A stretch of 64,000 bases of DNA. It comes from Thermomicrobiales bacterium (GTDB taxonomy: Bacteria > Chloroflexota > Chloroflexia > Thermomicrobiales > CFX8). The notes under the pieces are model-generated. The model searched no databases. It saw only the letters and a program-made list of their open reading frames with translations, and was not told the DNA's origin. Positions 14,315-48,910 of this stretch are shown here, in pieces. The translations under genes and the position numbers were made by a program. The first letter of the stretch is position 1. The number at the start of each line of letters is the position of its first letter. The stretch is taken from NCBI GenBank assembly GCA_041390865.1, contig JAWKPC010000002.1, positions 388,584-452,583 of the forward strand. The letters run 5' to 3'.

Positions 14315-16573
<2,259 letters not shown>

Positions 16574-19356: not shown

Positions 19357-21393
19357 ATGACCAACCGACTTGCGCAGGAGACGAGCCCCTACCTGCTCCA
19401 GCACGCCGAAAATCCGGTCGACTGGTATCCGTGGGGCGAGGACGCCCTGGAGAAGGCGCGAGACGAAGACAAAGTCATCCTGCTGTCGATCGGCTATTCC
19501 GCCTGCCACTGGTGCCACGTCATGGCTCATGAGAGCTTCGAGAACGACGCGATCGCGGCGCAGATGAACGACCTCTTCGTCAACATCAAGGTCGACCGCG
19601 AGGAGCGGCCGGATATCGATTCGCTCTACATGGCGTCGGTTCAGGCGATGACCGGTCACGGCGGCTGGCCGATGACCGTCTTCCTGACGCCGGACGGTAA
19701 GCCTTTCTACGGCGGAACCTACTTTCCACCGAACGACCGCGGCGGCATGCCGGGGTTCCCGCGGGTCATGCAGGGCGTCCACGAAGCGTATCGGGACCGG
19801 CGCGAGCAGGTGGAAGCGAGCGCCGAGACGCTGGCGAACCGGCTGGGCGAGGTCTTCCGGAGCGAGCTTCCACCAGGCGCGTTGAAGCCCGAGCTGTTCG
19901 AGACCGCGCTCGACAATCTGGAGCGGCAGTACGACGAGACGAATGGCGGGTTCGCCGGCGCGCCGAAATTTCCGGCCGCGATGACCGTCGATCTGCTGCT
20001 GAGGATCCACCACCGCAACGGCAGCGATCCGGCACTCCGCATGGCCAATCACACGCTGGACAGGATGGCGCGGGGCGGGCTCTACGATCAGGTTGGCGGA
20101 GGGTTCCACCGTTATACCGTCGACGCGGTCTGGCTGGTACCGCACTTCGAGAAGATGCTCTACGACAACGCGCTTCTGGCCGATACCTATGCCCAGGCGT
20201 TCCAGGCAACCGGGGAAGCGTTCTACCGGACGATTGCCGGAGAGACGCTGGATTATGTGCTGCGGGAGATGACGTCGCCGGAAGGCGGCTTCTACTCGAC
20301 CCAGGATGCCGATACCGAAGGCGAAGAGGGGAAGTTCTTCGTCTGGAGACCGGACGAAGTGCGCGAGGTACTGGGCGATGATGCCGGCAAGGTCATCGAG
20401 CTCCTCGGTCTCACCGAGCGGGGAAACTTCGAAGGCTCGAACGTCCTCTCGATCCCGAAGCAGGAAGATCGCATGCGATGGCGTGACGATGAGTTCTCGC
20501 CTCTAAGGCAGCAGTTGTTCGATGCTCGGGCTGACCGGACACACCCCGGACGCGACGACAAGATCCTGACGTCCTGGAACGGCCTGATGATGCGCGCATT
20601 CGCCAACGCGGCCTGGATGCTGGGTTCCGAGAGGTACGCCACCGCTGCGGCCGACAACGCGCGATTCCTGAGGGATAATCTCCAGCAACAGGGCAGGCTG
20701 CTCCACTCGTACAAGGATGGCGAGGCGCGTATCGATGCGTTTCTCGAGGACTACGCATTCCTGATCGACGGCCTGCTGGCGCTCTACCGGGCGACCTTCG
20801 ATCCAGAGTGGATCGAATGGGCAACCGACCTCGCCAGAGTAGCGGTCGACAACTTCTACGATGCCGAGGAAGGCGCGTTCTACGACACGTCGTCGGCCAG
20901 CGAGCGGCTGATCGCCCGGCCGCGCGATCCGTTCGACAACGCGACGCCGTCCGGCAACAGCGTCATCGTCGATAGTCTGATCCGGCTGGCGCATCTGATC
21001 GGCGACGTCGAGTTCACCCGGCTGGCGCGGGGCGTCATCGAGGAGCACGCTGGAATCGCCGCCGAGCATCCGCACGGACTCTCTCGCCTCCTCGTCGCTG
21101 CCGATTTCGCCACCGGCCCGAGCGCCGAGATCGCGATCGTCGGTCCAGCGAACGATGCCGGGCGGCAGGATCTGCTGGATGCGTTGAGAGACGAGTACCT
21201 CCCGCGCGTTGTCGTCGCGGTGGCCGAGCCGGGCGATGGCGCGGCCGAGACGATCGATCTGCTGCTGAGCCGCGAGCTCGTTGACGGAAAATCCGCCGCC
21301 TATGTCTGCATCAACCATGCCTGCCAGATGCCGGTGACGGAACCGGACGCAATGCTCGAGCAGGCCCGGAGTCTGGTCGGTGAAAGAGGTTAA
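19357..21393 (+). CDS. Thioredoxin-domain protein of the YyaL/DUF255 (SSP411-like) family
   Basis: 678 aa. N-terminus [47 protein letters not shown], then a six-hairpin glycosidase-like region. Confidence 0.9.
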
Positions 21394-23393: not shown

Positions 23394-24524
23394 TCAGCCG
23401 TCATGCCCGCATGCCGGAAAGGTGTTGTCGAGCCACTCCACCGCCGCATCCAGGACGGGATCATCCGTCCGCGGCTGCGTCGACCCATCGGCCTCGATCT
23501 GTACATCCGGGATGATCGATGCATCGTATGGCTGGCCGGTGCGATCCGCCATGCGGGCGACGGTGAGGATGATCCACGCTCCGTCGGGCATCTCGTAGAC
23601 ATCGTTTGACGTCGGGACACCTGCGGTCGCCTGCCCGAAGCTTCGGGTTTCCGGCCTGCCGCGGAACGCGATCGCAACGGCTTCCCCCGAGCTTCCCGTT
23701 TCGTGGCCGGTCAGGACCGCGACCGGTGGTTGCGGGTTCTCGGGGATGTAAGCGGGCGCCTTCGCCCAGAGGACGTCTCCTTCATAGGCTCTGCCGTCCC
23801 TGATCGTCCAGTCGATGGATGAGCCGTCCGGATAGACGAAGGAGCCGACGACGCCGTCACCAAGGATCGGGCTGATGCCGGCCAGCATCGGCCACATGTT
23901 GCCGCCGGAGTTCTCCCGCAGATCGACGATCCAGCCGCAGACCTCCGGACTGTCAAGCTGACGGATGACCTGCACGGCCGTCTCCGCGTATTGCCCGGCT
24001 GCTTCGCCGGTCCCGGTGACGCGCGGCAACTCGAAGTAGGCGATGCCGTGCTCCAGCCGGCGCCCCTCCGGCATCGGGCCGGATGGCGATCCATGTTCGG
24101 CAGATCGGGCGGCGATCGGGTTCAGGAACGCGCTGTGATCGTCGCCGAGCAGATCCAATGTGTCACGGAGGATCTCGTAGATTTCCAGCCTGGTCTCGAC
24201 TGTGGACGCGCGTTCATGCGCCCGGGCCCGAACGGTGGGCCAGTCGACTTCGGACCGGTAGAGTGCGTTCTGCTCGATGTAGTCCAGTCCCTCGTCAAGG
24301 TAGGCGATCCATTCCTGGCGAGGAAGCGTTGCTGCCGGTTGTGCGGTCGGGGACGGCGTTGCGGGAACGATGGCTGCAGCCGTTGCCGTAGGCGACGAGA
24401 TGGCTGATCTGGTCGGGGGAGCCGTCGAGACCGGCTGCGGCGTGGCTGTGTCGGTCATCCGGGCAGCCCCGGAACAGCCGCTAAGGATCATGAAGATGGT
24501 TGCCAGCAGCCAGAAGGGTTTCAC
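23394..24524 (-). CDS. S41-family peptidase, predicted lipoprotein
   Basis: Lipobox signal MKPFWLLATIFMILSGC. S41 motifs IVDLRENSGGN and LTGHETGSSGEAVA. Confidence 0.7.
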   Translation of the reverse strand: MKPFWLLATIFMILSGCSGAARMTDTATPQPVSTAPPTRSAISSPTATAAAIVPATPSPTAQPAATLPRQEWIAYLDEGLDYIEQNALYRSEVDWPTVRARAHERASTVETRLEIYEILRDTLDLLGDDHSAFLNPIAARSAEHGSPSGPMPEGRRLEHGIAYFELPRVTGTGEAAGQYAETAVQVIRQLDSPEVCGWIVDLRENSGGNMWPMLAGISPILGDGVVGSFVYPDGSSIDWTIRDGRAYEGDVLWAKAPAYIPENPQPPVAVLTGHETGSSGEAVAIAFRGRPETRSFGQATAGVPTSNDVYEMPDGAWIILTVARMADRTGQPYDASIIPDVQIEADGSTQPRTDDPVLDAAVEWLDNTFPACGHDG

Positions 24525-24645: not shown

Positions 24646-24996
24646 CTAGACGCGGATCATGTGTTCGATGTCGAGCAGGTGCTCGGTCAGCGTCGGGCGA
24701 ATGCGCCGGGCATCGATGCCGGGCTCCGTGAGCACGATCAACCGGAGATCGCTGCCGCTGACGACGTGAATAGCTCCGAACTCCGAGACGACGTCCCAGT
24801 AATTTGGTCCGTCTTCTCCCGGCCGGTCTACCACGACCGCGGTTGCCGCCAGATGCTCGGCATCCGGTACGTTGGTCGCCGCGTTGGCGACGAGCAAGCC
24901 GTCGACCGTCGTGATGACGGCTCCCAGGATCGCCTGGTATTCGAGAAGGTCGAGCAACCTGCTCTCAACTCCGGAACCACGGCTACCTGCCGGCAT
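24646..24996 (-). CDS. Roadblock/LC7 (MglB-like) domain protein
   Basis: 116 aa from the ATG at 24994-24996. The pattern GAVITTVDGLLVA...HVVSGSDLRLIVLTEPG is typical of Roadblock/LC7. The upstream part of the track ORF is Arg-rich and implausible. Confidence 0.7.
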   Translation of the reverse strand: MPAGSRGSGVESRLLDLLEYQAILGAVITTVDGLLVANAATNVPDAEHLAATAVVVDRPGEDGPNYWDVVSEFGAIHVVSGSDLRLIVLTEPGIDARRIRPTLTEHLLDIEHMIRV

Positions 24997-25124
24997 AGTT
25001 GCATCCTGCTTCCGTCTGCTGGTCAGCCATAGCTTTGCTCCTTCGCCAGGCCGGTCCCGGTTTCCTGGTCGCCGATTCCTGCGGGCGCACAACCTGCGCC
25101 CGCAGGAATCGCGATCACATCGGA

Positions 25125-28100
25125 CTACATCTTGATTTCGCGCATGAGACGCCGGGTAGCCATCGCCATCGAGGCATGGTTGCGCGCCTGGGCGCCATCG
25201 CCGCGCCGCCGGTAAATGTCGGCCAGCAGCCTGTGGGCCAGATCCGCTTCGAGATCGTTGTAGGCGCATTGCTCCAGCGACGTGATGATGGCATTGTGGC
25301 GGCCCGGGGCGTGCCGGATGAGCCAGCGATACTCGGTAAATGCCGCGTGAATCTCACCCTGATCCAGCAGGGCTTCGGCGTACTCCCAGCGAGCTTCGTC
25401 GTCGCGCGGATCGGCTTCTACTCTTGCCTGCAACGCATCAAGCTCGCCCGAGTCCGCGGCTCGCTCCTCGAGATCGACCTGATCGAATTCTTCGACAGCT
25501 TCCGATTCCGTTTCGGTCAGCGGCGCTTCCGGTTCGCTCATCTCGACAGGTAGGTCTTCAATCCCGGCCGGTTCGTCGGCTTCCAGTGCAGGAAGCATAC
25601 GGTCGCCTTTGATTGTGCCCTGGTCGACGAGGGCGGCCTTTGCCTGGCGAGTGCGCTCGAAGAGATCGCCGTCCACTACCAGTTGATCGGCTGTCGGGGT
25701 GACGACGTTCGCGTGCGGTTCGACGGTCTCCTCGATGGTCGCGCCGACATCCGAGGCCTGGACCATTTCGACAGGAGCGCGGCCCTGGTCCCGATTCAGC
25801 CGGTCGAGGTTCTCTCGTGCTGCCTGCTCGACTTCAGCCATGCGCTGTTCGAATTGCGGGTCGAGCGATCCGCTGGTCAGCTCCTGGGTGATGTCCAGAT
25901 GATGGTCAACGCCGTCTGGTAGCTCGGGATCGAGCAGCGGCTCTTCGTCGGGGGCCGCTTCGGAAACCTCGTTGAGCAGCTCCTGGACGTTCAGTCCGGC
26001 GCTCTCATCCTGTTGTTCCCAGGGAAGCACGCCGAACTCGAACGAATCCGATCCCTCAACATCCTCGAAGTCCTCGAGGGCGAAGGGTTCGAGTCCTGGA
26101 ACATCTTCCAGCCCGCCGAGCGTGTCCGATACGTTTTCGGTTGGCTGCGGTTCCGGCTGGGGGGCTTCCCCGGCAGGAGTCTCCGGTTGCGCGGTCGGGC
26201 GCGCCGGCGCTGCGGGTTCCACCGAGGTGACGAAGTCCATGTCCTCATCGTCGAGCGCGAACGGCTCGAGACCGAAGTCATCAATATCCAGCAGCTGGTC
26301 GTTGCCGCTGTCTCCACCGGGCGTCGCCGATGCAAGCTGGGCGTCGATCTCGTCCCATCCTTCGGCAAGTGAGGGGAATGCCGGGCTCTCGTCCGATGAT
26401 TCCTCGCTTGAGGGCTGCCCCGCGCCGGTCGCCGTGCGCGTCGGATCGAAGGGGGCCAATCCCTCGTTGCCAAGCTCTCCAAGTAGACGGGTGAAGCCGG
26501 TGCCGGACTGGACGGCCGGCGGCGCTGCGGCCGGTTCGGGTTCGATCGAGCTGTCTGCAGGTTCCGATTTCGCGGCCGTCGGTTCCTGCTCCTCGGATTC
26601 GCCGAGGATCATCGTGCCGCGATCCACCTCATCGACGTCCATCTCTGCGTCGGGTTCTTCGACGTCGGGAAGTTCGGGGAAGTCGTCATCGTCTCCCGAT
26701 GCATTGCCGAGGCTGCCACCGCCGCTGAAAAAGCCGGGGGCGACTTTTGGCGGTCCTCCGCCGATCTGAACGGCGTCCGGATCCTCGATCTTGATGTCGA
26801 AATCGATATCCGAATCTTCGAAGAATCCGGAGGACTTCTGGACGGGCTCGCCATCCGATGCGCCGAAGTCATCCAGGCTCATCGGTTCGATGCCTTCGAA
26901 GTCACCCAGCAGGTCGCCAAGCTCGGCGTCGTCGACCGGCTCATCGGAAAACGGAGGAGTGGGGTCGTCTCCAAGCTCCATGTCGAGCAGGTTGAGACTG
27001 GGTACGGAGACTTCTTCATCCCCGTCGTCAAAACTAAATGGCTCTTCATCAATCGGCTCTTCCGACATCGATTCGTCCGCGAAATGTTCGGCGATGTCGT
27101 CCATGGTTTCTTCGGCTGCCGCCGGGGATACCGGTTCGACCTCGACCGTGTCCGGCTCTTCTTCGGCCTCGATTGTTTCCGGAACAAAGGAGGACGTCGT
27201 CGGTTCCACCGGGATCTCCGGCATCTCGTCGGAGAACTCTTCAAGGCGGATCGGCTGGAGATCGTCGATATCGGTTATCTCGTCGGATTCTTGATCCGGT
27301 TGGAAGGTGAAGTCGGGGGCCGGCACGAATTGCGGGCGCTCGCTGACGACGGCGTCGGCCCGTTCTTCGAGCACCGGCTGATGCTCGGGGTCGACGAGCA
27401 GGAAATCGGCGTCGGCGTCCGGCTGCCTCGCAAGCATCGCAGCGGCGATCATGCTGTCGGGGTCGAGGCGCCGCAAGCGCTCGCGGTACTCCAGCGCCAG
27501 GTCGGTATCGCCGGTGCGGTGTTCGAGGTCAGCCAGAATGACAAGCGCCGGAACGAGCTCGCTGTGATCTTTCAGAAACTCGCGGGCGATCTCGGCTGCG
27601 TCCGGGTTCTCACCGAGGATCCAGAGCGTCTCGGCCAATCCCATCCAGAGATCAATCCGGTCAGGTAGGGCGATCAGCGCCGACTGGTACTCCTTGATGG
27701 CCCGGCGCAATCGAGCGCCGTTGGCGTGAATCTGGGCCAGGGCGGCGTGAGTCAGCCGCAGCCTGCCGTCGGAGCCGTAGCGCTTCTCGGCGACGCGGTT
27801 GATCGGTTCACGGTACTGGGCGTCGTATGGAGCAAGCTCCCAGGCGACCTGGCAATAGGCCAGCGCGTGCTCGAGCACGCCGCGGTCCTCAGCGATCAGG
27901 CCCAGACCGAGGTAGGCTGAGGCGTCGCGGGGATCATGAGAGAGCAGGCGGGCGAACCAGGTCTCCGCCTCGGCGGAATCCCCCTGTTCGAGGTACGCCA
28001 GCCCGAGCAAACGGTGTGCCGCGCTGTAATGCGGGTACTGGTCGATGATGTTTGTACACGATTCAACGACGGAGCGATAGTCTCCGTTGTCAAAGGCTGT

Positions 28101-28139
28101 CTGCGCCTGTTCGATCGTGGCACCGAGAGAATTGCTCAT
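25125..28139 (-). CDS. TPR-repeat protein with a ~600-aa hyper-acidic disordered central linker
   Basis: 1004 aa. The N-terminal ~250 aa and C-terminal ~140 aa have TPR-like helical repeats. The centre is D/E/P-rich with recurring [LI]-[EQ]-P-[FMI]-x-[LF]-[DE]-[DE] motifs. Confidence 0.8.
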   Translation of the reverse strand: MSNSLGATIEQAQTAFDNGDYRSVVESCTNIIDQYPHYSAAHRLLGLAYLEQGDSAEAETWFARLLSHDPRDASAYLGLGLIAEDRGVLEHALAYCQVAWELAPYDAQYREPINRVAEKRYGSDGRLRLTHAALAQIHANGARLRRAIKEYQSALIALPDRIDLWMGLAETLWILGENPDAAEIAREFLKDHSELVPALVILADLEHRTGDTDLALEYRERLRRLDPDSMIAAAMLARQPDADADFLLVDPEHQPVLEERADAVVSERPQFVPAPDFTFQPDQESDEITDIDDLQPIRLEEFSDEMPEIPVEPTTSSFVPETIEAEEEPDTVEVEPVSPAAAEETMDDIAEHFADESMSEEPIDEEPFSFDDGDEEVSVPSLNLLDMELGDDPTPPFSDEPVDDAELGDLLGDFEGIEPMSLDDFGASDGEPVQKSSGFFEDSDIDFDIKIEDPDAVQIGGGPPKVAPGFFSGGGSLGNASGDDDDFPELPDVEEPDAEMDVDEVDRGTMILGESEEQEPTAAKSEPADSSIEPEPAAAPPAVQSGTGFTRLLGELGNEGLAPFDPTRTATGAGQPSSEESSDESPAFPSLAEGWDEIDAQLASATPGGDSGNDQLLDIDDFGLEPFALDDEDMDFVTSVEPAAPARPTAQPETPAGEAPQPEPQPTENVSDTLGGLEDVPGLEPFALEDFEDVEGSDSFEFGVLPWEQQDESAGLNVQELLNEVSEAAPDEEPLLDPELPDGVDHHLDITQELTSGSLDPQFEQRMAEVEQAARENLDRLNRDQGRAPVEMVQASDVGATIEETVEPHANVVTPTADQLVVDGDLFERTRQAKAALVDQGTIKGDRMLPALEADEPAGIEDLPVEMSEPEAPLTETESEAVEEFDQVDLEERAADSGELDALQARVEADPRDDEARWEYAEALLDQGEIHAAFTEYRWLIRHAPGRHNAIITSLEQCAYNDLEADLAHRLLADIYRRRGDGAQARNHASMAMATRRLMREIKM

Positions 28140-28510
28140 TGTTTACCTGTACCCTTGAACGTTCGACGTGTCGCAATTGCTGTGCGCGGCCCGTTTCGGG
28201 AAAATCCGATATGCCCGACGCACAGTAGGCAAGAACCGCGGCACCTGCATTATATGGAGCTAAGCCGTATTGCCATAGCCTAACTGGTAGCCGATTACTC
28301 CCAAAATGGCGATTCGTCTCCCGTTAGCGAGGGGATGCACCGCCGGACCGATGTGCGGCACTTGCTGTCTCGACGCGACTATTGTGCCAATCCGGCAAGA
28401 CTCCAACCCCCGTACGGGCCCATCAGGACTTTCTGCTCTCAACATCCATTTCACAAGCTCCGAAAATGTAGAATAGGAGTCAGATCTCCCGGGGGACTGA
28501 CTCGAAGGTA

Positions 28511-29935
28511 TTGGGAGGCAGCAGCTCACGATGGGCGAATTGCCTGTTCCTCGATGAAAAGCAATCGCCGGGAAGCGGTCGTACCAACTTGAGTCAGGAT
28601 CGACTTCATACTTACAAGTGTAATGCGTATGTCGCTATGGTGGCTGCATTAGCAGTCGCCTTTCTTGCGACATCGTTTTCACTTGTTCCGGTGGAAGTCA
28701 GTGCCGGACTGCTCCTGACCGCGGCGCTGCTCGGCATCCTCAGTCTCATCTTCGAAGTCGGCATCGCATTCCCGCTACTCATCCATGGTGCGACGAGTTT
28801 CTCGACCGTCACCTTTATGGCGATGGTCTTCCTCCTGCCGTTCCCGACACCGGCGATCATTGGCGCGGTCGTCGTGGTGATCAACGATCTCTGGGAACGC
28901 AAGCCGCTCCGTAGTCTGATCTTCAACTTTTCCAACTACGCGCTGACGTTCGGGCTCGCATCCTGGGCCTGGTACAGCTACAGCAATGGCCGGCTGATCC
29001 ACGAACTGCCACTGACGATTGAATCGCTGGTTGTGATTCTGTCGATTCTCGCGATCTTCTATCTGGTCAATGTCTTTACCCTCAATGGTTACCTTGCAGT
29101 CGCGAACCGCCGTCCTTTCAGCTACATCTGGCTGACCCAGGACGCCGAGTTCCTGCTGCCCTATGTCAGCCTGCAGGTCGTCGGGATGCTCTTCGCCGCG
29201 CTATGGGGAACCGCGCCAGCGGCGATTCCCTTCCTGGTCGTACCTGCCGTGACGACCTATCTGGCCTTCGAGACGATCAAACGGCTCCAGAGCCAGACCC
29301 AGGATGCGATGATCGCCATGGCCGACGCGATCGATGCCAGAGATCCCTACACCGCCGAGCATTCGCAACGGGTGACGGACCTCGCGGTACGCATCGCCGA
29401 GGTCTACGGGCTGCGCGCGCAGGAGATCGACCGGGTTGAGCTGGCGGCCCGGGTGCATGACCTCGGGAAAATCGGGATCAGCGACGCGATCCTTAACAAG
29501 CCCGGCCGGCTGGAGGATCACGAATGGGATCTGATGAAGGCGCACCCTGTCATCGGCGAGCAGCTTCTCGGTCCATACCGGCAGTTCCGACACGAATCGA
29601 CGATTGTGCGCTATCACCACGAACGGTGGGATGGCCGGGGATATCCGGACGGGATCAAGGGCAACGACATCCCGATCGGATCGAGAATCATCGCTGTTGC
29701 CGACTCTTTCGACGCCATGACCTCCGACCGTCCCTATCGGAAGGCCCTTCCGGACGAGGTCGCTCTGGATGAGATCCGCAAGGGCGCCTTGAGCCAGTTC
29801 GACCCGCAGGTGGTCGCGAGTTTCCTGCATGTGATGGACGACATGTCGAAGGTTACGCCGATCAAGCGCGCCTCGGAGCACTCGGCAACGGCTAGCCCGG
29901 TCGAAGAGATCCGACAGGTGTCCGGCGCGAACTAG
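28511..29935 (+). CDS. Membrane-anchored HD-GYP domain protein (c-di-GMP phosphodiesterase family)
   Basis: An N-terminal multi-TM region, then HD-GYP motifs: HSQRV, HDLGKIGISDAILNKPGRL, HHERWDGRGYPDG. The start is uncertain: TTG 28511, TTG 28583 or ATG 28637. Confidence 0.9.
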   Translation: MGGSSSRWANCLFLDEKQSPGSGRTNLSQDRLHTYKCNAYVAMVAALAVAFLATSFSLVPVEVSAGLLLTAALLGILSLIFEVGIAFPLLIHGATSFSTVTFMAMVFLLPFPTPAIIGAVVVVINDLWERKPLRSLIFNFSNYALTFGLASWAWYSYSNGRLIHELPLTIESLVVILSILAIFYLVNVFTLNGYLAVANRRPFSYIWLTQDAEFLLPYVSLQVVGMLFAALWGTAPAAIPFLVVPAVTTYLAFETIKRLQSQTQDAMIAMADAIDARDPYTAEHSQRVTDLAVRIAEVYGLRAQEIDRVELAARVHDLGKIGISDAILNKPGRLEDHEWDLMKAHPVIGEQLLGPYRQFRHESTIVRYHHERWDGRGYPDGIKGNDIPIGSRIIAVADSFDAMTSDRPYRKALPDEVALDEIRKGALSQFDPQVVASFLHVMDDMSKVTPIKRASEHSATASPVEEIRQVSGAN

Positions 29936-30563: not shown

Positions 30564-32138
30564 CTAGCGCTGGCGGAACTGGAAGTGGAGGAACAGGCTG
30601 GCGACGGTCGTCGTTCCGATCGCGATGGCAGCCGGGCCGACGATGGTCCAGGTCGGGGCGTCAACGCCGCGGAGCATGACTTCCTGGAGGCCGCTGATCC
30701 CGTACGTCACCGGCAGGATATAGGCGACGACCTGTACTGGCGAGAGCAGATTGTCGAGCGGCAGGAAGAACCCGCTGAAGAACACCGCAGCGAGCAGCAG
30801 GATCATCGCCGCCTGAACCGCCTGCGTTTCGGTGCTGACGATGGCGGAAATCAGGAAACCCATCCCCAGCGACGCTGCCAGAACCAGGCCGATGACAAGA
30901 CAGAACTGTAGCCAGTCTCCAAGCAACGGCACGCTGAGCCCATAGATGATCACGAGTGCGAGGATGGCGCTCAGGATGGCCCCGATGATGAAGTAGGAGA
31001 GGTATTTGCCGGTCAGCACTTCGCGGGGGCTGATCGGCGCGACGCGGAACATCTCGATCGTGCCGCGTGCCCGCTCGCGAACGAGAGCCAGCGCCGTCAG
31101 GGTGATAGCGATGTGCTGGATGAGCAGCGCCAGGACGCCCGGCGCGTAGAACTCGACGAAATCGGGTGATGTCGGTGCAAGGTTGTCTTCATCCGCCACG
31201 AACGGAGCGACCAGCACGTCGGCGGGAATGGCCGGCAGTGCACGGGCGGTCTCGGCGAAATCGTCGCGCCGTTCGGCGATGAACTCAAGGTCGGGCGCGA
31301 TTGTTTCCGGCCCGGCATCCGGGTTATCCAGCTTCGTCGAGCTGTTCGTGAGGCCGGTCTGGATCTCGCTCAGATCGCGGTCGATCGATTCCAGGTTCTG
31401 AACCGGCGGGCTCTGTGGCGCGCCGGTTGCCCCGACGGAGAGAGCGGTCGCCAACAGGATCCGGCGGAACTGGGTGGCCGAATCGCGAGTTTCCCGGGTG
31501 AGTTCCCGCAGGTCCTGGAGTTCCTGCTGGGCTTGTTCCTGGTTGCCAGCTTCCAGTGCCGAATTGAGCCGGTCGATGCCGTTATTCAGCCGCGCCGGGT
31601 ACTCGGTCAATTCACTAAGTCCGGTGCGCGACTGGGTAAATCCCTGTTCCAGGACTTCCCGGAGGACGAGCTGGTTGATCTCGGAGGTCTGGACGCTCGA
31701 GTAGAACTCGAGCCAGTTGCGCTGGAACGGGACGAGCTCGTTGTAGAAGACGGTAATCTCCGCCGTTTGCCCGGAGGAGATCGTCTCGAACGCGTTTTCC
31801 GGGAAGGCGACGACCAGATCGATGTCTCGATCTCGAAGCTCGCGCAACGCCGCTCCGCGGTCGCTTGTCACGTCCTTCAGGACGAGCGGGGAGACGAAAC
31901 TATCTTCGTACGCCTGGCGGTTCGTGCTCAGGTCGCTGTCGGGAGGGATGACGAGTACTGTCTCGACCGGCGGGGTCCGGCCCTCATAGCCGACTCCGAA
32001 GAGCAGCAGCACCAGGAACGGGGCGATGATCAGGGCGACGATCAGCTGTGGCTGACGGCGTATCTGAACGATGTCCTTGCCGATGAACGCCGCCGGTCTG
32101 AGGATCATCCGCCAGAGGCGGTTAAGTAGATGTCTCAT
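30564..32138 (-). CDS. ABC-2 type transporter permease with a large extracytoplasmic coiled-coil domain
   Basis: 524 aa: one N-terminal TM, a ~300-aa soluble insert (YhgE/Pip-like look), then a C-terminal 5-TM ABC-2 bundle. A 4-nt overlap with the upstream ATPase gene suggests coupling. Confidence 0.75.
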   Translation of the reverse strand: MRHLLNRLWRMILRPAAFIGKDIVQIRRQPQLIVALIIAPFLVLLLFGVGYEGRTPPVETVLVIPPDSDLSTNRQAYEDSFVSPLVLKDVTSDRGAALRELRDRDIDLVVAFPENAFETISSGQTAEITVFYNELVPFQRNWLEFYSSVQTSEINQLVLREVLEQGFTQSRTGLSELTEYPARLNNGIDRLNSALEAGNQEQAQQELQDLRELTRETRDSATQFRRILLATALSVGATGAPQSPPVQNLESIDRDLSEIQTGLTNSSTKLDNPDAGPETIAPDLEFIAERRDDFAETARALPAIPADVLVAPFVADEDNLAPTSPDFVEFYAPGVLALLIQHIAITLTALALVRERARGTIEMFRVAPISPREVLTGKYLSYFIIGAILSAILALVIIYGLSVPLLGDWLQFCLVIGLVLAASLGMGFLISAIVSTETQAVQAAMILLLAAVFFSGFFLPLDNLLSPVQVVAYILPVTYGISGLQEVMLRGVDAPTWTIVGPAAIAIGTTTVASLFLHFQFRQR

Positions 32139-33007
32139 TCTTGGACGTCAGACGATCGCCGGACGAGCTCGACGAATACCGTATCCAGGGAAATCTGAAC
32201 CTCCTCGATCTCTTCAATCTCATGGCCCTCAGCGTTCATCGCGCCGATCAGGCGGGGAATCGCGGCGTGGGCCGACTCGACGACGATCTCCATCTCCTTC
32301 GGGGAGGTCCGCCGCCCATCTCGTACGAAATCAAGCGCTAGAAGCTTCGCTGCGAGGTCGTCGGACAGAGCCTCCGACTTGAGCCGCACGAGCTCGCCGC
32401 CGAAGACCTGATCGCGGAGGCCGTCCGGGCTGTCACTTGCGACGACCTGGCCGTTGTTGATCAGCAGAATCCTGTCGCACCGCTCGGTTTCGGTGATGTA
32501 CTGGGTCGTAACGACCAGGGTTGCGCCGTTTTCCCGGAGATGTCCGAACATCTCCCAGATCGATTCGCGCAGCACGGGGTCGAGGCCTGCGGTGGGCTCA
32601 TCAAGAACGATCAAGTCGGGCTGGTGCACGAGGGTGGCGGCGAGGGCCACGCGGCGCTGCATGCCGCCCGAGATGTCCCGGGCCAGCCGGTCGCTGGCAT
32701 CCGCGAGGTCGAGCCGCTCGAGGAGCGCATCGATGCGATGGCGCCGTTCGCGGGGACCGAGTCCGTAGGTGCCTGCGGCAAAGAGCAGATTCTCCCGAAC
32801 GGTCAGATCTTCATAGAGCAGGAACTGCTGCGGCAGGTAGCCGATCCGTTCCCGGTCCATACGATCGAACTTCCCGGGGGCTTTGTCGAATACCGTCACT
32901 TCTCCATGGCTTGGTTTGTACAACCCCAGAAGAAGGCGGATCATCGTGGTCTTGCCGGCGCCGCTCGGCCCGACAATGCCGATGATCTCACCTCGTGAGA
33001 TATCCAC
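32135..33007 (-). CDS. ABC transporter ATP-binding protein (N-terminus probably extends upstream of 33007)
   Basis: Walker A GPSGAGKTT, signature SGGMQRR, Walker B LIVLDEPT. The track ORF starts at a GTG only 13 residues before Walker A. Conserved-looking sequence continues to 33091. Confidence 0.9.
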   Translation of the reverse strand: MDISRGEIIGIVGPSGAGKTTMIRLLLGLYKPSHGEVTVFDKAPGKFDRMDRERIGYLPQQFLLYEDLTVRENLLFAAGTYGLGPRERRHRIDALLERLDLADASDRLARDISGGMQRRVALAATLVHQPDLIVLDEPTAGLDPVLRESIWEMFGHLRENGATLVVTTQYITETERCDRILLINNGQVVASDSPDGLRDQVFGGELVRLKSEALSDDLAAKLLALDFVRDGRRTSPKEMEIVVESAHAAIPRLIGAMNAEGHEIEEIEEVQISLDTVFVELVRRSSDVQE

Positions 33008-33613: not shown

Positions 33614-33789
33614 ACCCTGGCTCCTGCGATATGCTCATTCACCCGACAATCTTACGGGGTTGCGGGGCGGATGGATTGTTAACTGGTTTACAGCCAGGGC
33701 GTTGCGCGAAAGCTATTCCGTGACTTGACGGGGGACGTGCCGGCTGTTTGAATCAACGAAGAAGTGAATATTCCGAGGGAGCAACGGGG

Positions 33790-33875
33790 GCTCGGGGATG
33801 CCGGGCTGAGAGGGTAGTCGATTCACTACCGACCGTTTGGGACCTGACCTGGGTAATGCCAGCGTAGGGATGTGA
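33790..33875 (+). promoter_or_regulatory. TPP (THI-box) riboswitch
   Basis: Conserved elements ggggaugcc...gggCUGAGAgg...ACCUGAcCUGGgUAAUGCCAGCGUAGGGA match the thiamine pyrophosphate riboswitch core. It lies upstream of a thiXYZ-like transporter. Confidence 0.9.
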
Positions 33876-33929
33876 CGACGGACTCGGCGGGGAAACTGCC
33901 GGGTTGTCTCGGAAGGATGTGCATCGCAA

Positions 33930-33955: not shown

Positions 33956-34013
33956 CATTGCCATGATCATTGTTAACCAACCGACAACGCGACGATCGCC
34001 TACCGGCGGTGAG

Positions 34014-34781
34014 ATGGAGCTGCTCTCTGTCTCCCACCTGTCGGTCAGCTTTGACGAGATCGCGGCGATCCGGAATGTCAGCTTGAGCGTTCGGCAGGGC
34101 GAGTTCGTCGCCCTGCTCGGCCCGTCGGGCTGCGGTAAGAGCACGCTGCTCAACGCGGTCGCCGGTCTTGTCGAGCCGGATTCCGGAGAGATTCGGCTGC
34201 AAGGCGAAGTCGTGCGGGAACTGCGCGGCAGGGTTGCCTACATGCCGCAGCGGGACGCGTTGCTGCCGTGGCGTACCGTCCTGGAAAACGCGACGCTGAG
34301 CGCCGAGGTAAGCGGCAGAGACAAGACAGAAGCGCGCGAGCGCGCCCGGGAGTTGCTGCCGCGTTTCGGTCTCGAAGGCTTCGGCGACAGCTATCCGGGA
34401 GCTCTCTCGGGAGGTATGCGGCAGCGCGCCGCGTTTCTCCGGACGGTGTTGAGCGACCGGGAAGTGATGCTCCTCGATGAGCCGTTCGGCGCGCTTGATG
34501 CGCTGACCCGCCGCTCGATGCAGGAGTGGCTGCTGGATCTCTGGAACGATCTCGGCCGAACCATCCTGATGGTCACCCATGATGTCGAGGAAGCGCTGCT
34601 TCTGGCGGATGCCGTTGCCGTGATGACCGCGAGGCCAGGAACGATCAAGCATCGGGAGGCAGTCGACCTGCCCCGCCCGCGCTCGGCGGACATGATCGCG
34701 GCGCCGGCATTCATCGAGCAGAAGACGAATCTGCTGACCGTGCTGCGCGAGGAGCTGGGCGAGATGGGCGGCAGGCTGTGA
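34014..34781 (+). CDS. ABC transporter ATP-binding protein (NitT/TauT family, ThiZ-like)
   Basis: MELLSVSHLSVSF..., Walker A GPSGCGKST, signature LSGGMRQR, Walker B MLLDEPF. First gene after the TPP riboswitch. Confidence 0.9.
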   Translation: MELLSVSHLSVSFDEIAAIRNVSLSVRQGEFVALLGPSGCGKSTLLNAVAGLVEPDSGEIRLQGEVVRELRGRVAYMPQRDALLPWRTVLENATLSAEVSGRDKTEARERARELLPRFGLEGFGDSYPGALSGGMRQRAAFLRTVLSDREVMLLDEPFGALDALTRRSMQEWLLDLWNDLGRTILMVTHDVEEALLLADAVAVMTARPGTIKHREAVDLPRPRSADMIAAPAFIEQKTNLLTVLREELGEMGGRL

Positions 34782-45312: not shown

Positions 45313-45578
45313 GGTGAGTTCCTTTCGTTTCGGGGAGTGTAGCGTGGAGTTTGTAGTGCGTAGGTTGTCGTTTGTAGGGAACGGCCGGAGAAATCCTCAT
45401 CCTTGTCTCCTCTGCTAATTGATGCCGGAGTGGGATGTGTCTGTGGCAGCGACAAAAGCCCTCCCTCTATATCGAGGGGGGACAGGTGAGAGAGCCCGCT
45501 TATCCCACGTACAATATGGACAGGAATAACGATTCAATCGTGGTGGATGTCCGGACGTTTCCGGGAGATTGGAGCGCC

Positions 45579-47432
45579 ATGAGCACGACCTCGCAACCGG
45601 CTGCACCATCTCAGCCCAGGCCGCCCGCGTCTCCGGCACCGTTGAAATTCGCGCGGGATGTCATCAAGCTTGGCGTCGACGCCACCACCGCCTACGAACG
45701 GCCTGATTTGCAGGAGCGGATTCAGCTTGCCCTGAACCGGCTGGACAGGCCGGACACGATTGTCTGTGTGACCGGCGAGTTCAAGAAGGGCAAGAGCGCG
45801 CTGGTGAACGGCTTGCTCGGTGACGACTACTGCCCGGTTCACGACGATCTGGCAACGTCGGCGATCACGATTCTCCGCCATGGCGACGAGCCGTCGATTA
45901 GCGTCCGCCGGCACGAAGCTGGCGAAACGGTCGTCGAGCCGATCGAGCGCGACCAGATCCGGGATTTCGCGACTGAAGAGGGCAACCCTGAAAACGCCCG
46001 CAACGTCGAGTTCGTCGAGCTGCAGGTTCGGAACGGGTTGCTGGCGCGCGGGGTGACGCTGGTCGATACACCGGGGTCCGGGACGCTGGCCTCGGGGTAC
46101 GGAGCCGCGACGCTGGCGTTCCTCCAGTCCGCCGACGCGCTGATCTTCGTGACCGACTGCTCGCAGGAGCTGATCGAGCCGGAAGTCGAGTATCTGCAGG
46201 AGGCGGTCAAGCGTTGCGCGACGGTCATGGTCGTGATGACCAAGATCGATCTCTATCCCGAGTGGAGACGGATTGTCGAGATCAATCGGGAGCATCTCGA
46301 GCGGGCCGGCATCGAAGCGCCGATCGTTCCGGTCTCCTCGACCCTCCGGAACGTAGCTCTCCAGGAACGCGACCGTGACCTGAACAACGAGAGCGGTTTT
46401 CCCGAGCTCCTCGACGCGCTAAGGACGGAGATCCTCGACCAGGCAGGAAAGCGGGCGGCGTTCGAGGCGCTGATGGCGACCCGGACGGCGGCCGATCAGA
46501 TGATCGGAGCCTATCAATCGGAGCTCGACATTCTCGCCGATCCGGAGCGGGCCACCGAGGAGATCGAGCGGCTTGAAGACGCGAAGGAGCGGCTGAACGC
46601 GTTGCGCGGCGCCGGCTCCCGGTGGGCGACGGTCATGAACGACGGTTTTTCCGTCCTCACGTCGAACGTCGATTACCAGTTTCGCTCGACGATGCGCGGC
46701 ATTCTCCGGAGCACCGAGGAACGGATTGAAGATACCGATCCATCGAGCGAGTGGGATGAGATCACCGAGCGACTGCAGAGCGATGTCGCGAAGGCGGTCG
46801 AGGAAGCGTTCAACCGGATCGATGACGACGTCGGGCAGCTTCGCGACACGATCTCAGCGATGCTTCGGGACGAGACGACGGCTATCTGGCAGACGTCGGC
46901 CGGATCGATCTCGATCGGCGTTGAAGACATGTGGAGCGAACGCGAGATCGAGGATGAGAATATCGGCCAGAAGATCTTCAAGGGCCTGAATGCGATGCGC
47001 GGTTCCTACATGGGATTGCTGATGGTCGGGATGCTCGGCAATTTCGTTGGACTGGCGATGATCACTCCTGTCCTGATCGGGGCCGGCGTGCTGTTTGGCG
47101 GCCGACAATTTCTCGAAGAGCGGAAACGCGATGTCACCCGCAAGCGCCAGCAGGCACGCACGTTCGTCCGGCAGTTCGTCGACGACGTCCAGTTCGAAGC
47201 GGGAACGCGCATCCGCGAGACGACGCGCGATTTTCAGCGCGAGATGCGCGATTACTACACCGACCGGATCGGCGAGCTGGCCCAGACCTATACCGAAGCG
47301 GTCCAGAACACTCAGAATAGCCTCAAGCAGGACGAATCCTCGCGAGAGTCGCGCAAGCGCGATCTGACGACGCGGATCGAGAAGCTGACCGAGCTACGGC
47401 GCAGAGTGGAGATTGCCGAGGAGCGGCTGTGA
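45579..47432 (+). CDS. Bacterial dynamin-like protein 1 (GTPase with hydrophobic membrane paddle)
   Basis: G1 GEFKKGKS, G3 DTPGSG, G4 TKID, and long helical stalk regions. Hydrophobic segment YMGLLMVGMLGNFVGLAMITPVLIGAGVLFGG (about 47006-47100). The ATG at 45579 follows ggag. Confidence 0.85.
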   Translation: MSTTSQPAAPSQPRPPASPAPLKFARDVIKLGVDATTAYERPDLQERIQLALNRLDRPDTIVCVTGEFKKGKSALVNGLLGDDYCPVHDDLATSAITILRHGDEPSISVRRHEAGETVVEPIERDQIRDFATEEGNPENARNVEFVELQVRNGLLARGVTLVDTPGSGTLASGYGAATLAFLQSADALIFVTDCSQELIEPEVEYLQEAVKRCATVMVVMTKIDLYPEWRRIVEINREHLERAGIEAPIVPVSSTLRNVALQERDRDLNNESGFPELLDALRTEILDQAGKRAAFEALMATRTAADQMIGAYQSELDILADPERATEEIERLEDAKERLNALRGAGSRWATVMNDGFSVLTSNVDYQFRSTMRGILRSTEERIEDTDPSSEWDEITERLQSDVAKAVEEAFNRIDDDVGQLRDTISAMLRDETTAIWQTSAGSISIGVEDMWSEREIEDENIGQKIFKGLNAMRGSYMGLLMVGMLGNFVGLAMITPVLIGAGVLFGGRQFLEERKRDVTRKRQQARTFVRQFVDDVQFEAGTRIRETTRDFQREMRDYYTDRIGELAQTYTEAVQNTQNSLKQDESSRESRKRDLTTRIEKLTELRRRVEIAEERL

Positions 47433-48910
47433 GCGCGGCTGCCCACGTTGGCGAGCGGGTGAACTACCTTTGTGACCAGGCGATGCTGGCGGTTCACGGT
47501 ACGCCGCTTGCCGCCGAAATCACCTCCATTCGCCAGCGGATGAGCGAGCCGTTGCGGGTCGCGATCGCCGGGCGGGTCAAGGCCGGGAAATCGACACTGC
47601 TCAACGCGCTGGTCGGTGAGCGGCTGGCGCCGACGGACGCCGGCGAGTGCACCAGGGTCGTGAGCTGGTACCGCCAGGGCTTCGGCTATGAAGTGCGGGC
47701 AACCCTCCGGAGCGGCGAGTCTCGGGAACTCCGCTTCCGCCGGGACGACGGGCGTTTGGAGATCAACCTCGGCCGCTACGATATCGAAGAGATCGACCGG
47801 ATCGACGTCAATTGGCCGTCGTCGAACCTGTCGAGAATGACGTTGATCGATACACCCGGACTGGCGTCGCTCACCGCGGGCGCATCGGTGCGGACGCATG
47901 ACTTCCTCGCGCTGCACGACGAAGACCGGCAGAGCGATGCCGATGCCGTGCTCTATCTGATGCGGCACATGCACAGCCGCGACGCCGAATTTCTCGAAGC
48001 GTTTTTCGATGATTCGCTGGCGAACACGTCTCCGGTCAATGCCATTGCCGTGCTCTCGCGTGCCGACGAGATCGGCGCCGGACGGCCGGATGCGCTGGAG
48101 TCGGCTGCCAGAATCGCCGAGCGCTACGGCAGGGATGAGCGGATTCGCGCGCTGTCCGTCAGCGTCCTCCCGGTCGCCGGTCTGCTGGCCGAGACCGGCA
48201 CGACGCTCCAGGAGCATGAAGCGTCGTCGATTCGGGCACTGACCCGGATCGAGGAGGATGAGCTGCGGCGGATGCTCCTGTCGGTCGACCGCTTCCTTGC
48301 GCCGGAAGCCAGCGACCTGCTGGTCGAAACGCGGCGAGAACTGCTCGACAGGCTGGGGCTGTTCGGCGTTCGGTTGGCTATCCAGAAGGTTCGTAGCGGC
48401 GAGGCCCTTTCGGCCGTCGACCTGTCGCAGATTCTGATCGACGCGTCGGGGCTGGAGACGCTGCGGAGCTTGCTCGAGCAGCATTTCAGCGCCCGCGCGA
48501 TGGCGCTCAAGGGCCGGTCCGCGCTGGTGTCGCTCCGGAATTGCGCCCGCGATCTGATGGAGATCGACCGGAACGCGGGCCGGCGATTGTTCGCCGAGAT
48601 CGAGCAGGTTGAGATTTCCACCCACGCCTTCGCCGAGCTGCGGCTGCTCCACATGATGCTGACCGGCCAGATCAAGCTGACGGAAGATGAGCAAGCCGAG
48701 GTGAACCGGCTAACCAGCGGCGGCGGGCTGGAGCAGCGGGCTGGCGTCGATCAGGATGCAACGGACGAGCAGATCCAGCAGGCGGCGCTGGCCGGCATCG
48801 CGCGCTGGCGGCAACGTGCCGCAAGCCCGCTGCTCGATCGCGCGGCGGCGGATGCGTTCGAGATCGCCGCCCGGTCGTACGAGGGTATCTACGCGCAAGT
48901 GGCCGGATAA
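47429..48910 (+). CDS. Bacterial dynamin-like protein 2 (no hydrophobic segment)
   Basis: G1 GRVKAGKS, G3 DTPGLAS, G4-like LSRAD. The GTG start overlaps the upstream TGA (GTGA), which implies translational coupling. Confidence 0.85.
   Translation: MSAAAHVGERVNYLCDQAMLAVHGTPLAAEITSIRQRMSEPLRVAIAGRVKAGKSTLLNALVGERLAPTDAGECTRVVSWYRQGFGYEVRATLRSGESRELRFRRDDGRLEINLGRYDIEEIDRIDVNWPSSNLSRMTLIDTPGLASLTAGASVRTHDFLALHDEDRQSDADAVLYLMRHMHSRDAEFLEAFFDDSLANTSPVNAIAVLSRADEIGAGRPDALESAARIAERYGRDERIRALSVSVLPVAGLLAETGTTLQEHEASSIRALTRIEEDELRRMLLSVDRFLAPEASDLLVETRRELLDRLGLFGVRLAIQKVRSGEALSAVDLSQILIDASGLETLRSLLEQHFSARAMALKGRSALVSLRNCARDLMEIDRNAGRRLFAEIEQVEISTHAFAELRLLHMMLTGQIKLTEDEQAEVNRLTSGGGLEQRAGVDQDATDEQIQQAALAGIARWRQRAASPLLDRAAADAFEIAARSYEGIYAQVAG

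Follow-up and report, generated by a model that had tools for sequence, protein, structure and literature searches.

A tetratricopeptide-bracketed acidic scaffold with a conserved motif array and an adjacent orphan Roadblock protein in Thermomicrobiales and Chloroflexales

Introduction

Roadblock/LC7 proteins are normally dimers, and in eukaryotes such dimers bind segments of disordered chains, as do LC7 with the dynein intermediate chain and Ragulator with LAMTOR1. In bacteria, MglB is encoded within approximately four genes of a GTPase of the MglA family, with which it co-evolves (PMC4316618). In the same survey, 328 of 749 MglB homologues lacked a coupled GTPase gene, and not one of these had been characterized as of 2014 (PMC4316618). 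MglC of Myxococcus xanthus is a Roadblock homodimer without GTPase-activating protein (GAP) activity; its binding site on the scaffold protein RomR is the C-terminal part, which is negatively charged (PMC10329633). FimV and HubP are hubs for many clients, with a very long, acidic cytoplasmic region containing repeats and an end of the tetratricopeptide repeat (TPR) type (PMC12918733). Here, we describe a gene pair from a Thermomicrobiales bacterium, encoding a large scaffold protein with TPR modules at both ends and a small Roadblock protein. The pair is located in a stretch of 64,000 nucleotides (nt), i.e., positions 388,584 to 452,583 of contig JAWKPC010000002.1 (assembly GCA_041390865.1), which is referred to as the window and to which all coordinates refer.

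The scaffold-plus-Roadblock unit is real, conserved and previously undescribed, and it resembles known designs of a hub with an adaptor. No description of a TPR-bracketed scaffold of this kind, of a TPR/Roadblock/ndk system, or of its recurring motif in Chloroflexi was found in publications or curated families. We consider it somewhat more probable than its negation, at roughly 55%, that the cytoplasmic, multivalent scaffold and its dedicated Roadblock protein constitute one complex that functions as an assembly hub, with the Roadblock dimer as the likeliest partner to dock on the motifs of the scaffold.

Architecture of the scaffold protein

An earlier reading of the window from its letters and open reading frames (ORFs), hereafter called the sequence-only reading, had described a protein of 1004 residues with TPR-like repeats at both ends and a center of approximately 600 residues that is rich in Asp, Glu and Pro and looks disordered. 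Both parts of this description were borne out. Within residues 10-80, Pfam recognizes TPR_16 (E = 5.6e-20), TPR_14 (6e-16) and TPR_19 (1e-13), all above their cut-offs, and the C-terminal end is matched by TPR_20 (Pfam, residues 894-942) and by a LapB-like model (NCBIfam). In an AlphaFold2 (AF2) monomer model, built from an alignment of 25 orthologues, the ends fold into 14 and 6 helices, respectively. The predicted local distance difference test (pLDDT) values of these ends are mostly 91-97, i.e., mostly above 90, with dips to ~80-88 at the termini (83 at residues 1-10) and to 80 at residues 121-130. Foldseek searches returned generic TPR matches only (consensus TPR, OGT, PilF and Pex5). Pfam matches, helices and structural matches thus all place the scaffold among the TPR proteins.

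In the same model, most of the segment between residues 261 and 888 has pLDDT values below 50. Residues 251-870 consist of 14.7% Glu, 12.6% Asp and 10.8% Pro; acidic residues make up 27%, and the net charge of this segment is -148. For the whole protein, the isoelectric point (pI) is 4.05 and the net charge -179. Neither a signal peptide nor a transmembrane (TM) segment is evident from the sequence; no hydrophobic stretch of TM length was seen by eye, and no dedicated TM predictor was run. A LysM domain was not found with Pfam, and the TPR domain begins right at the start of the sequence. The scaffold protein is cytoplasmic.

A conserved motif array in the acidic center

The center carries a recurring short motif, exemplified by the peptide DFGLEPFALDDEDMDF and called the PF-acidic motif below. 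Its consensus is [DE]-x-G-[LI]-[EQA]-P-[FIM]-[SAT]-Φ-[DE]-[DE]-[FL]-[GD], where Φ is a hydrophobic residue. The five copies noticed in the sequence-only reading are all present, within a few bases of the positions given for them (Table 1). In the orthologue alignment (25 full-length sequences, 34-72% identity), four of the five, together with a fifth, variant copy, GLAPFDP, hold their position down to 34% identity. Within the copies, P296, E301, P626, F627 and F686 are invariant and P419 and P685 nearly so, and the sequence between the conserved islands is only 10-30% conserved. The remaining copy, EEPFSFDD, is not conserved, because it lies in an insert whose columns are gapped in 60-90% of the orthologues. 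The alignment was evaluated by aligned columns and regular expressions, since a hidden Markov model of 14 residues missed the more distant orthologues, presumably as a consequence of its very short length and biased composition.

Given the strong compositional bias of the center, and with one of the five copies not being conserved, the repeated peptides might be regarded as a functionless by-product of a low-complexity sequence rich in Asp, Glu, Pro, Phe and Leu. However, shuffling the center 20,000 times gave an expectation of 0.001-0.06 copies, dependent on which of three versions of the pattern was used, versus the five observed, and none of the shuffles reached five. As the pattern had been set after inspection of the sequence, conservation in orthologues is a stronger test than shuffling, and there, the Pro and Phe positions stand out as invariant from poorly conserved surroundings. 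Moreover, proteins from another order carry as many as 28 copies of the same motif. Shuffling and conservation together rule out a composition artefact, and the by-product explanation, which we consider extremely improbable, is already contradicted by the conservation data. The possibility that the motifs were purely compositional and not conserved had been named in the sequence-only reading as fatal to its proposal; the alignment speaks to the contrary and favors the proposed scaffold displaying multivalent acidic-hydrophobic peptides.

A Roadblock protein encoded next to the scaffold

The sequence-only reading had assigned the next gene, 128 nt downstream of the scaffold gene, to the Roadblock/LC7 family. 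The location and the fold stand, but the single sequence of 116 residues scores below the cut-off of the Pfam Robl_LC7 model (15.3 bits versus 23; E = 0.017). A profile of 29 orthologues, when compared with the Protein Data Bank (PDB), matched 7f8f (E = 3.7e-5) and 3leq, which is CvnB5 of Streptomyces (E = 5e-4). Syntenic orthologues in Chloroflexales have unmarked Pfam Robl_LC7 hits at E ≤ 1e-5 in precomputed annotation, and the family profile recovers these orthologues at E = 1e-36 to 1e-48.

The AF2 model of the protein (pLDDT 79.5; predicted TM-score 0.74) has the topology a-b-b-a-b-b-b-a, with helices at residues 8-18, 43-56 and 96-115 and strands at 23-30, 35-39, 65-70, 75-80 and 84-90. 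Foldseek searches of the PDB with this model gave 58 matches at E ≤ 0.001, and the 50 listed of these, all with probability 1.00, are Roadblock, LC7, LAMTOR or MglB chains with TM-scores of 0.7-0.78. The TM-score was 0.74 to MglB (6h5b_B) and 0.73-0.77 to Roadblock proteins of Streptomyces (3leq and 3kye). Thus, the 116-residue ORF has the Roadblock/LC7 fold and is homologous to this family. Among its conserved residues are several arginines, of which R6 is invariant and R13, R21, R85 and R100 are nearly invariant.

In the window, no terminator-like site was found between the two genes, with promoter and terminator scans not above chance, and the scaffold and Roadblock genes are probably transcribed together. 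The spacer contains a 15-codon ORF, MADQQTEAGCNYAGR (~24983-25030, minus strand), with a strong ribosome-binding site, GAAGGAG. This ORF runs across the start codon of the Roadblock gene in another reading frame and might act as a leader or in coupling. No RNA element from Rfam was found in the spacer.

Distribution of the family and co-occurrence of motif and Roadblock gene

In species-representative genomes, relatives of the scaffold were confined to metagenome-assembled genomes (MAGs) of Thermomicrobiales/Chloroflexia. The Roadblock gene comes next after the scaffold gene in each of the 11 genome-scan relatives with enough downstream DNA, as well as in 27 further metagenomic loci and in two distant relatives, with spacers of 14-128 nt where genes or starts were called. 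The Roadblock gene is thus syntenic with the scaffold gene in these loci.

Weaker relatives are recognized by the N-terminal TPR domain, which defines the superfamily and is ~23-25% identical in distant members, and by the C-terminal signature RLLGDxYxKQG, with 700-1900 acidic residues in between. A profile search in 1.84 billion representative proteins yielded 3540 hits at E ≤ 1e-30, the best 150 all being below 1e-92. Named members are from Chloroflexales, e.g., WP_129632900.1 of Candidatus Oscillochloris fontis, and are annotated just as "tetratricopeptide repeat protein." The scaffold is therefore a member of a large uncharacterized family in Thermomicrobiales and Chloroflexales. The number of PF-acidic copies per protein in this family varies from 2-4 up to 28, with many Chloroflexales members having far higher numbers, up to 20-28 copies, e.g., VQPFSFDDFDFG and LTPFSLADLGLS. 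Positions outside the search pattern, i.e., -2 (L/V/M/I), +6 (L/F) and +7 (G), agree between the two orders, which therefore share a single motif, Φ-x-P-F-S-Φ-acidic-acidic-Φ-G. Another subgroup is devoid of PF motifs and has P-[DE]-W-[LV]-x-x-L-[RK] instead, designated P-x-W below, in 7-17 copies. The two types of array are nearly mutually exclusive: no protein is rich in both, and four carry a few copies of each. In seven loci with P-x-W scaffolds (L019, L021, L024, L093, L094, L099 and L105 in our numbering), no Roadblock gene is present and ndk follows directly.

To count co-occurrence, complete scaffolds of at least 700 residues whose genes had 400 nt or more of DNA downstream were taken from look-ups of distant members and from 80 metagenomic loci, a set which includes near-duplicate loci. 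A Roadblock gene was present next to 38 scaffolds with PF motifs and absent next to one (L023). It was present next to none of the 11 scaffolds without PF motifs, i.e., eight of the P-x-W type and three with neither motif (Fisher p = 3e-10, uncorrected for phylogeny). In a neighbor-joining tree of N-terminal TPR domains, these numbers come down to approximately three concordant events versus one discordant branch. Those in agreement are the divergence of the PF clades from the P-x-W clade and two separate events in Thermomicrobiales-type branches, L013 and L015, in each of which the Roadblock gene was lost together with the motif region. The scaffold of L013 is truncated to 504 residues, comprising the TPR ends and the PAPDF island, and that of L015 to 253 residues, comprising the N-terminal TPR domain only.

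Possible mode of action

The sequence-only reading had suggested that the scaffold's own TPR modules might recognize the motifs. This could take place within a molecule, leading to auto-inhibition, or between molecules, leading to a mesh or condensate, and the Roadblock protein would then bind elsewhere on the complex. Binding of short and often acidic peptides is a classic role of TPR superhelices. The model of the N-terminal domain matches the TPRs with which OGT and Pex5 bind peptides, and the domain contains a conserved basic cluster, with R110, R115, R120, R143, R146 and R161 invariant in the 25 orthologues; besides, conservation of the TPR ends goes along with that of the motifs in the Thermomicrobiales-type family. 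However, relatives with homologous TPR ends carry P-x-W motifs or none, which means that the TPR ends do not require PF motifs, and self-reading does not account for the co-occurrence of the Roadblock gene with one type of motif. In the AF2 monomer, no motif is docked and all have pLDDT values below 50, which is weak negative evidence. Self-recognition thus found no support, and we consider it rather unlikely.

We prefer the view that the Roadblock protein is the partner that reads the motifs. The two TPR modules would bracket an acidic disordered region of ~620 residues that displays the five conserved motif copies, and the scaffold and the Roadblock protein would form one complex. The Roadblock dimer is the most likely reader and may dock on the PF-acidic motifs, so that one scaffold could carry several dimers. 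The TPR ends may bind other partners or one another, and an assembly hub would result. Architecture, motif conservation, Roadblock fold, synteny and co-occurrence were observed, whereas physical binding, the choice of the module that reads the motif and any cellular process that such a hub would serve are inferred.

Several points weigh against this view. MglC binds RomR via a basic KRR patch, whereas the Roadblock protein of the window is itself acidic (pI 4.6, net charge -9), as is much of the proteome. The charge-based mode of MglC and RomR is therefore not simply transferable, and binding would have to rest on the hydrophobic P-F-x-Φ…Φ core rather than on charge. The scaffold encoded in L023 (protein P0046) carries PF motifs, but ndk follows directly and no adjacent Roadblock gene is present. 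With only about three independent events versus this one exception, phylogenetic inertia could explain much of the co-occurrence. Furthermore, no fusion of a scaffold with a Roadblock protein was found among the 287 proteins collected, nor was a scaffold-Ndk fusion.

Tentatively, and with clearly less confidence than in the complex itself, the idea may be extended to the entire family. Roadblock dimers would be the readers of Φ-x-P-F-S-Φ-acidic-acidic-Φ-G arrays of 4-28 copies, mediating multivalent assembly independent of a GTPase. The same TPR-bracketed chassis next to ndk would then accommodate at least two interchangeable motif "dialects," i.e., a PF-acidic one with a Roadblock reader and a P-D/E-W-L one with a different reader. 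Such a system might correspond, in bacteria, to the pairing of LC7 with the dynein intermediate chain or of Ragulator with LAMTOR1.

Genes around the pair and other features of the window

The usual gene order in the family is scaffold, Roadblock and ndk. Outside the lineage of the window, the Roadblock gene is followed by ndk or by a gene for an NrtR-type regulator, and in loci without a Roadblock gene, ndk is found 49-186 nt after the scaffold gene. The window lacks ndk, as well as DUF5317, and contains a gene for an S41 lipoprotein peptidase in this place, 121 nt after the Roadblock gene and on the same strand. Whilst the strand and the gaps of 128 and 121 nt were as described in the sequence-only reading, the peptidase was rejected as a member of the unit, as its gene is present only in the lineage of the window and has no counterpart in any relative. 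It is a lineage-specific insertion between the Roadblock gene and the NrtR-type regulator gene, which in close relatives follows the Roadblock gene directly. Thus, the lineage of the window lost the adjacency to ndk and gained the S41 gene.

These neighbors bear on a further alternative. The motifs might recruit third-party clients, such as a Ras-like GTPase encoded elsewhere, an HD-GYP phosphodiesterase or Ndk, with the Roadblock protein as a regulator of the GAP or guanine nucleotide exchange factor type in a polarity or signaling module similar to MglA/MglB/RomR. Roadblock proteins commonly regulate small GTPases, and GTPases of the MglA family occur in Chloroflexi (PMC4316618). In Bdellovibrio, MglA is bound by TPR proteins within a hub to which a receptor for cyclic di-GMP also belongs (PMC3983030). 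At the locus itself, a gene for an HD-GYP protein with seven TM segments (7TM) is located divergently upstream in 12 of the 12 Thermomicrobiales-type loci with upstream DNA, including the copy of the window in the public assembly (L001), and ndk follows the pair across orders. However, a gene for a small GTPase is missing from the immediate surroundings, as the sequence-only reading had already observed, and neither the vicinity of the pair in the window nor the flanks of 105 loci contained a small-GTPase-like ORF. The only ORFs with a P-loop in the window are large and encode ATP-binding cassette (ABC) ATPases, a dynamin-like pair 17 kb away, which is the only one of GTPase type, and a protein of 746 residues (14315-16555). 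The HD-GYP gene remains adjacent in L013 and L015 despite the loss of the motifs and the Roadblock gene and is absent from Chloroflexales loci, and its link to the scaffold is uncertain. The adjacency of ndk is independent of both the motif type and the Roadblock gene. Recruitment of such clients is therefore given a low probability, comparable to that of self-recognition by the TPR ends, and the Roadblock dimer is retained as the preferred reader.

Some further observations were made on the loci. The ndk gene is next after the scaffold, or after the Roadblock gene where present, in L007, L009, L011, L012, L013 and L015 and in Chloroflexales L034-L092, whatever the motif type. A gene for a DUF5317 membrane protein (PF17248, E = 1.5e-30) is located directly after the HD-GYP gene in L003, L007, L009, L011, L012 and L013. 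The MAG CAVUYM01 contains two HD-GYP/scaffold/Roadblock loci (L002 and L006) with identical Roadblock proteins. In L006, the scaffold gene is broken by frameshifts. Either the locus was duplicated recently, or the second copy is a repeat that results from mis-binning or mis-assembly.

The positions of the features in the window are listed in Table 1. The helical element near the end of the center follows the pattern F-x-R-x-R-x-x-K…G-x-I-x-G (residues 827-845), with F827, R829, R831, K834, G841, I843 and G845 invariant. Its identification as sigma region 1.1 or as an MshEN-like element was rejected (no Pfam match; hhalign probability 0.35%). A sigma-70 region 1.1 domain (PF03979, E = 4.5e-9) is present within the disordered region of the Chloroflexales protein P0047 (residues ~1110-1190) and in ~30 other Chloroflexales members, and some database fragments are named after it. 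No counterpart of that segment was detectable in the window protein with Pfam or with hhalign of two segment alignments, and residues 794-880 gave no match to PF03979 at E ≤ 10.

Table 1. Features of the scaffold-Roadblock locus and their positions in the window.
Feature	Position	Strand	Residues and conservation	Evidence
Scaffold gene (TPR / acidic disordered region / TPR)	25125..28139	-	1004 residues	ORF, Pfam, AF2 model
N-terminal TPR superhelix, 14 helices	27390..28139	-	1-250	Pfam, AF2, Foldseek, alignments
Acidic disordered center with conserved islands	25530..27389	-	251-870 (620 residues)	Composition, alignment, AF2
PAPDF island	27309..27323	-	273-277; invariant	Alignment
PF-acidic motif copy 1, DDLQPIRLEEFSDE	27225..27266	-	292-305; conserved as L-x-P-[IM]-s-x-E-E-F-G (294-303)	
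Extra motif copy EEPFSFDD (365-372) in IDEEPFSFDDGDEE	27012..27053	-	363-376; lineage-specific insert, not conserved	
PF-acidic motif copy 2, FEGIEPMSLDDFGA	26859..26900	-	414-427; conserved as G-[IL]-E-P-[MI]-S-[LI]-[DE]-[DE]-F-G (416-426)	
Conserved island GTGFTRLLGELGNEGLAPFDP with variant copy GLAPFDP (560-566)	26442..26504	-	546-566; G560, P563, F564 and D565 invariant	
GWDEID island, pattern GWDxxD	26343..26360	-	594-599; W595, D596 and D599 invariant	Alignment
PF-acidic motif copy 3, DFGLEPFALDDEDM	26238..26279	-	621-634; conserved as G-L-x-P-F-x-[LV]-[DE]-[DE] (623-631); P626 and F627 invariant	
PF-acidic motif copy 4, VPGLEPFALEDFED	26061..26102	-	680-693; conserved as G-L-E-P-F-[AS]-F-E-E-F-D (682-692); F686 invariant	
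LPWE island, after motif copy 4	26016..26027	-	705-708 (W707); conserved	Alignment
Helical element LVVDGDLFERTRQAKAALVDQGTIKGDRMLP	25590..25682	-	820-850	Alignment, AF2 helix (pLDDT ~74-80)
C-terminal TPR module, 6 helices, family signature HRLLADIYRRRGD	25128..25478	-	888-1004	Pfam, alignment, AF2
Orphan Roadblock/LC7-fold protein, 128 nt downstream of scaffold gene	24646..24996	-	116 residues	Profile, AF2, Foldseek, synteny
S41 peptidase, lipobox-type signal MKPFWLLATIFMILSGC at start, 121 nt after Roadblock gene	23394..24524	-		
Divergent membrane HD-GYP protein, ~6-7 TM segments and HD_5, intact HHERWDGRGYP	28511..29935	+		
Sigma-70-like promoter match ATGGCA-16-TATAAT, single, ~110 nt upstream of scaffold start	28249..28276	-		Not above chance

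Elsewhere in the window, a gene for a bacterial dynamin-like GTPase (45435-47432, plus strand; Dynamin_N, E = 1e-21, with a weakly mitofusin-like C-terminus) overlaps with a gene for a P-loop protein (47429-48910, plus strand). The only Rfam match in the window is a thiamine pyrophosphate riboswitch (33774-33887, plus strand; RF00059, 56.2 bits, above the gathering score). It is followed by genes for an ABC ATPase (33963-34781), a permease, an NMT1-type binding protein and a Thi4/DAO protein, which together are probably an operon for the uptake of a thiamine precursor and for synthesis. When L001 is compared with the window, frameshifts are apparent in the genes for a DsbH-like thioredoxin (19357-21393) and an ABC ATPase (32135-33007). 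Each of the two genes is matched by three separate pieces, and in L001, two genes are called for the thioredoxin, which suggests assembly errors in one of the versions.

Comparison with described systems

By analogy of function, the unit appears to most resemble RomR with MglC and the acidic polar hubs FimV and HubP. Like the RomR-MglC-MglB system, it combines a negatively charged scaffold region, in RomR the C-terminal part, with a Roadblock protein that forms a homodimer in the Myxococcus system, where the scaffold nucleates a larger assembly (PMC10329633). However, RomR has a receiver domain where the window scaffold has TPR ends, and a repeated PF-acidic motif has not been described in RomR. 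In addition, the Myxococcus module serves the GTPase MglA, whereas none of the 105 loci of the family described here has a GTPase gene nearby.

With FimV and HubP, the scaffold shares the long acidic cytoplasmic region, but neither their periplasmic LysM domain and TM anchor nor a TPR domain of the FimV type is present, and the NCBIfam FimV model did not match the scaffold at E ≤ 0.01. Conversely, FimV and HubP have no Roadblock partner, and they lack the additional N-terminal TPR domain of seven repeats. The eukaryotic complexes of the dynein intermediate chain with LC7 (PDB 3l9k) and of LAMTOR1 with Ragulator (6ehr and 5y3a) are among the Foldseek matches of the 116-residue protein. Their chains, however, have one Roadblock site each and no array, and the disordered partners are unrelated in sequence, so this likeness is an analogy only.

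MglB, which activates the GTPase MglA, and CvnB have the fold in common with the Roadblock protein of the window, but in their systems, a GTPase, MglA or CvnD, is encoded nearby, in the latter case together with CvnA and CvnC, none of which is found beside the window gene. An MglB system was rejected for lack of a coupled GTPase gene in the window or in the locus flanks. An actinobacterial conservon (CvnA-D, with a histidine kinase, a DUF742 protein and a GTPase around CvnB) was likewise rejected, the neighbors being the TPR scaffold, the S41 peptidase, NrtR and the HD-GYP protein. The Roadblock protein of the window thus falls in the class of "orphan" MglB homologues.

Significance

Arrays of short linear motifs on disordered scaffolds are well known in the organization of eukaryotic cells but, to our knowledge, have rarely been documented in bacteria. 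The family described here offers a clean, conserved bacterial example, with a defined motif and, in the adjacent gene, a specific candidate for its reader; motif and candidate gene appear and disappear together across a clade of class level. Since the motif is defined, direct experiments are easy. For one group of orphan Roadblock proteins, a category that comprised almost half of the MglB homologues in the 2014 survey, this would provide a first testable function. The work also draws attention to an abundant family in Chloroflexus-type phototrophs and Thermomicrobiales. Finally, it suggests that the pairing of a Roadblock dimer with an acidic scaffold, as known from MglC and RomR, may be older and more general than the regulation of GTPases.

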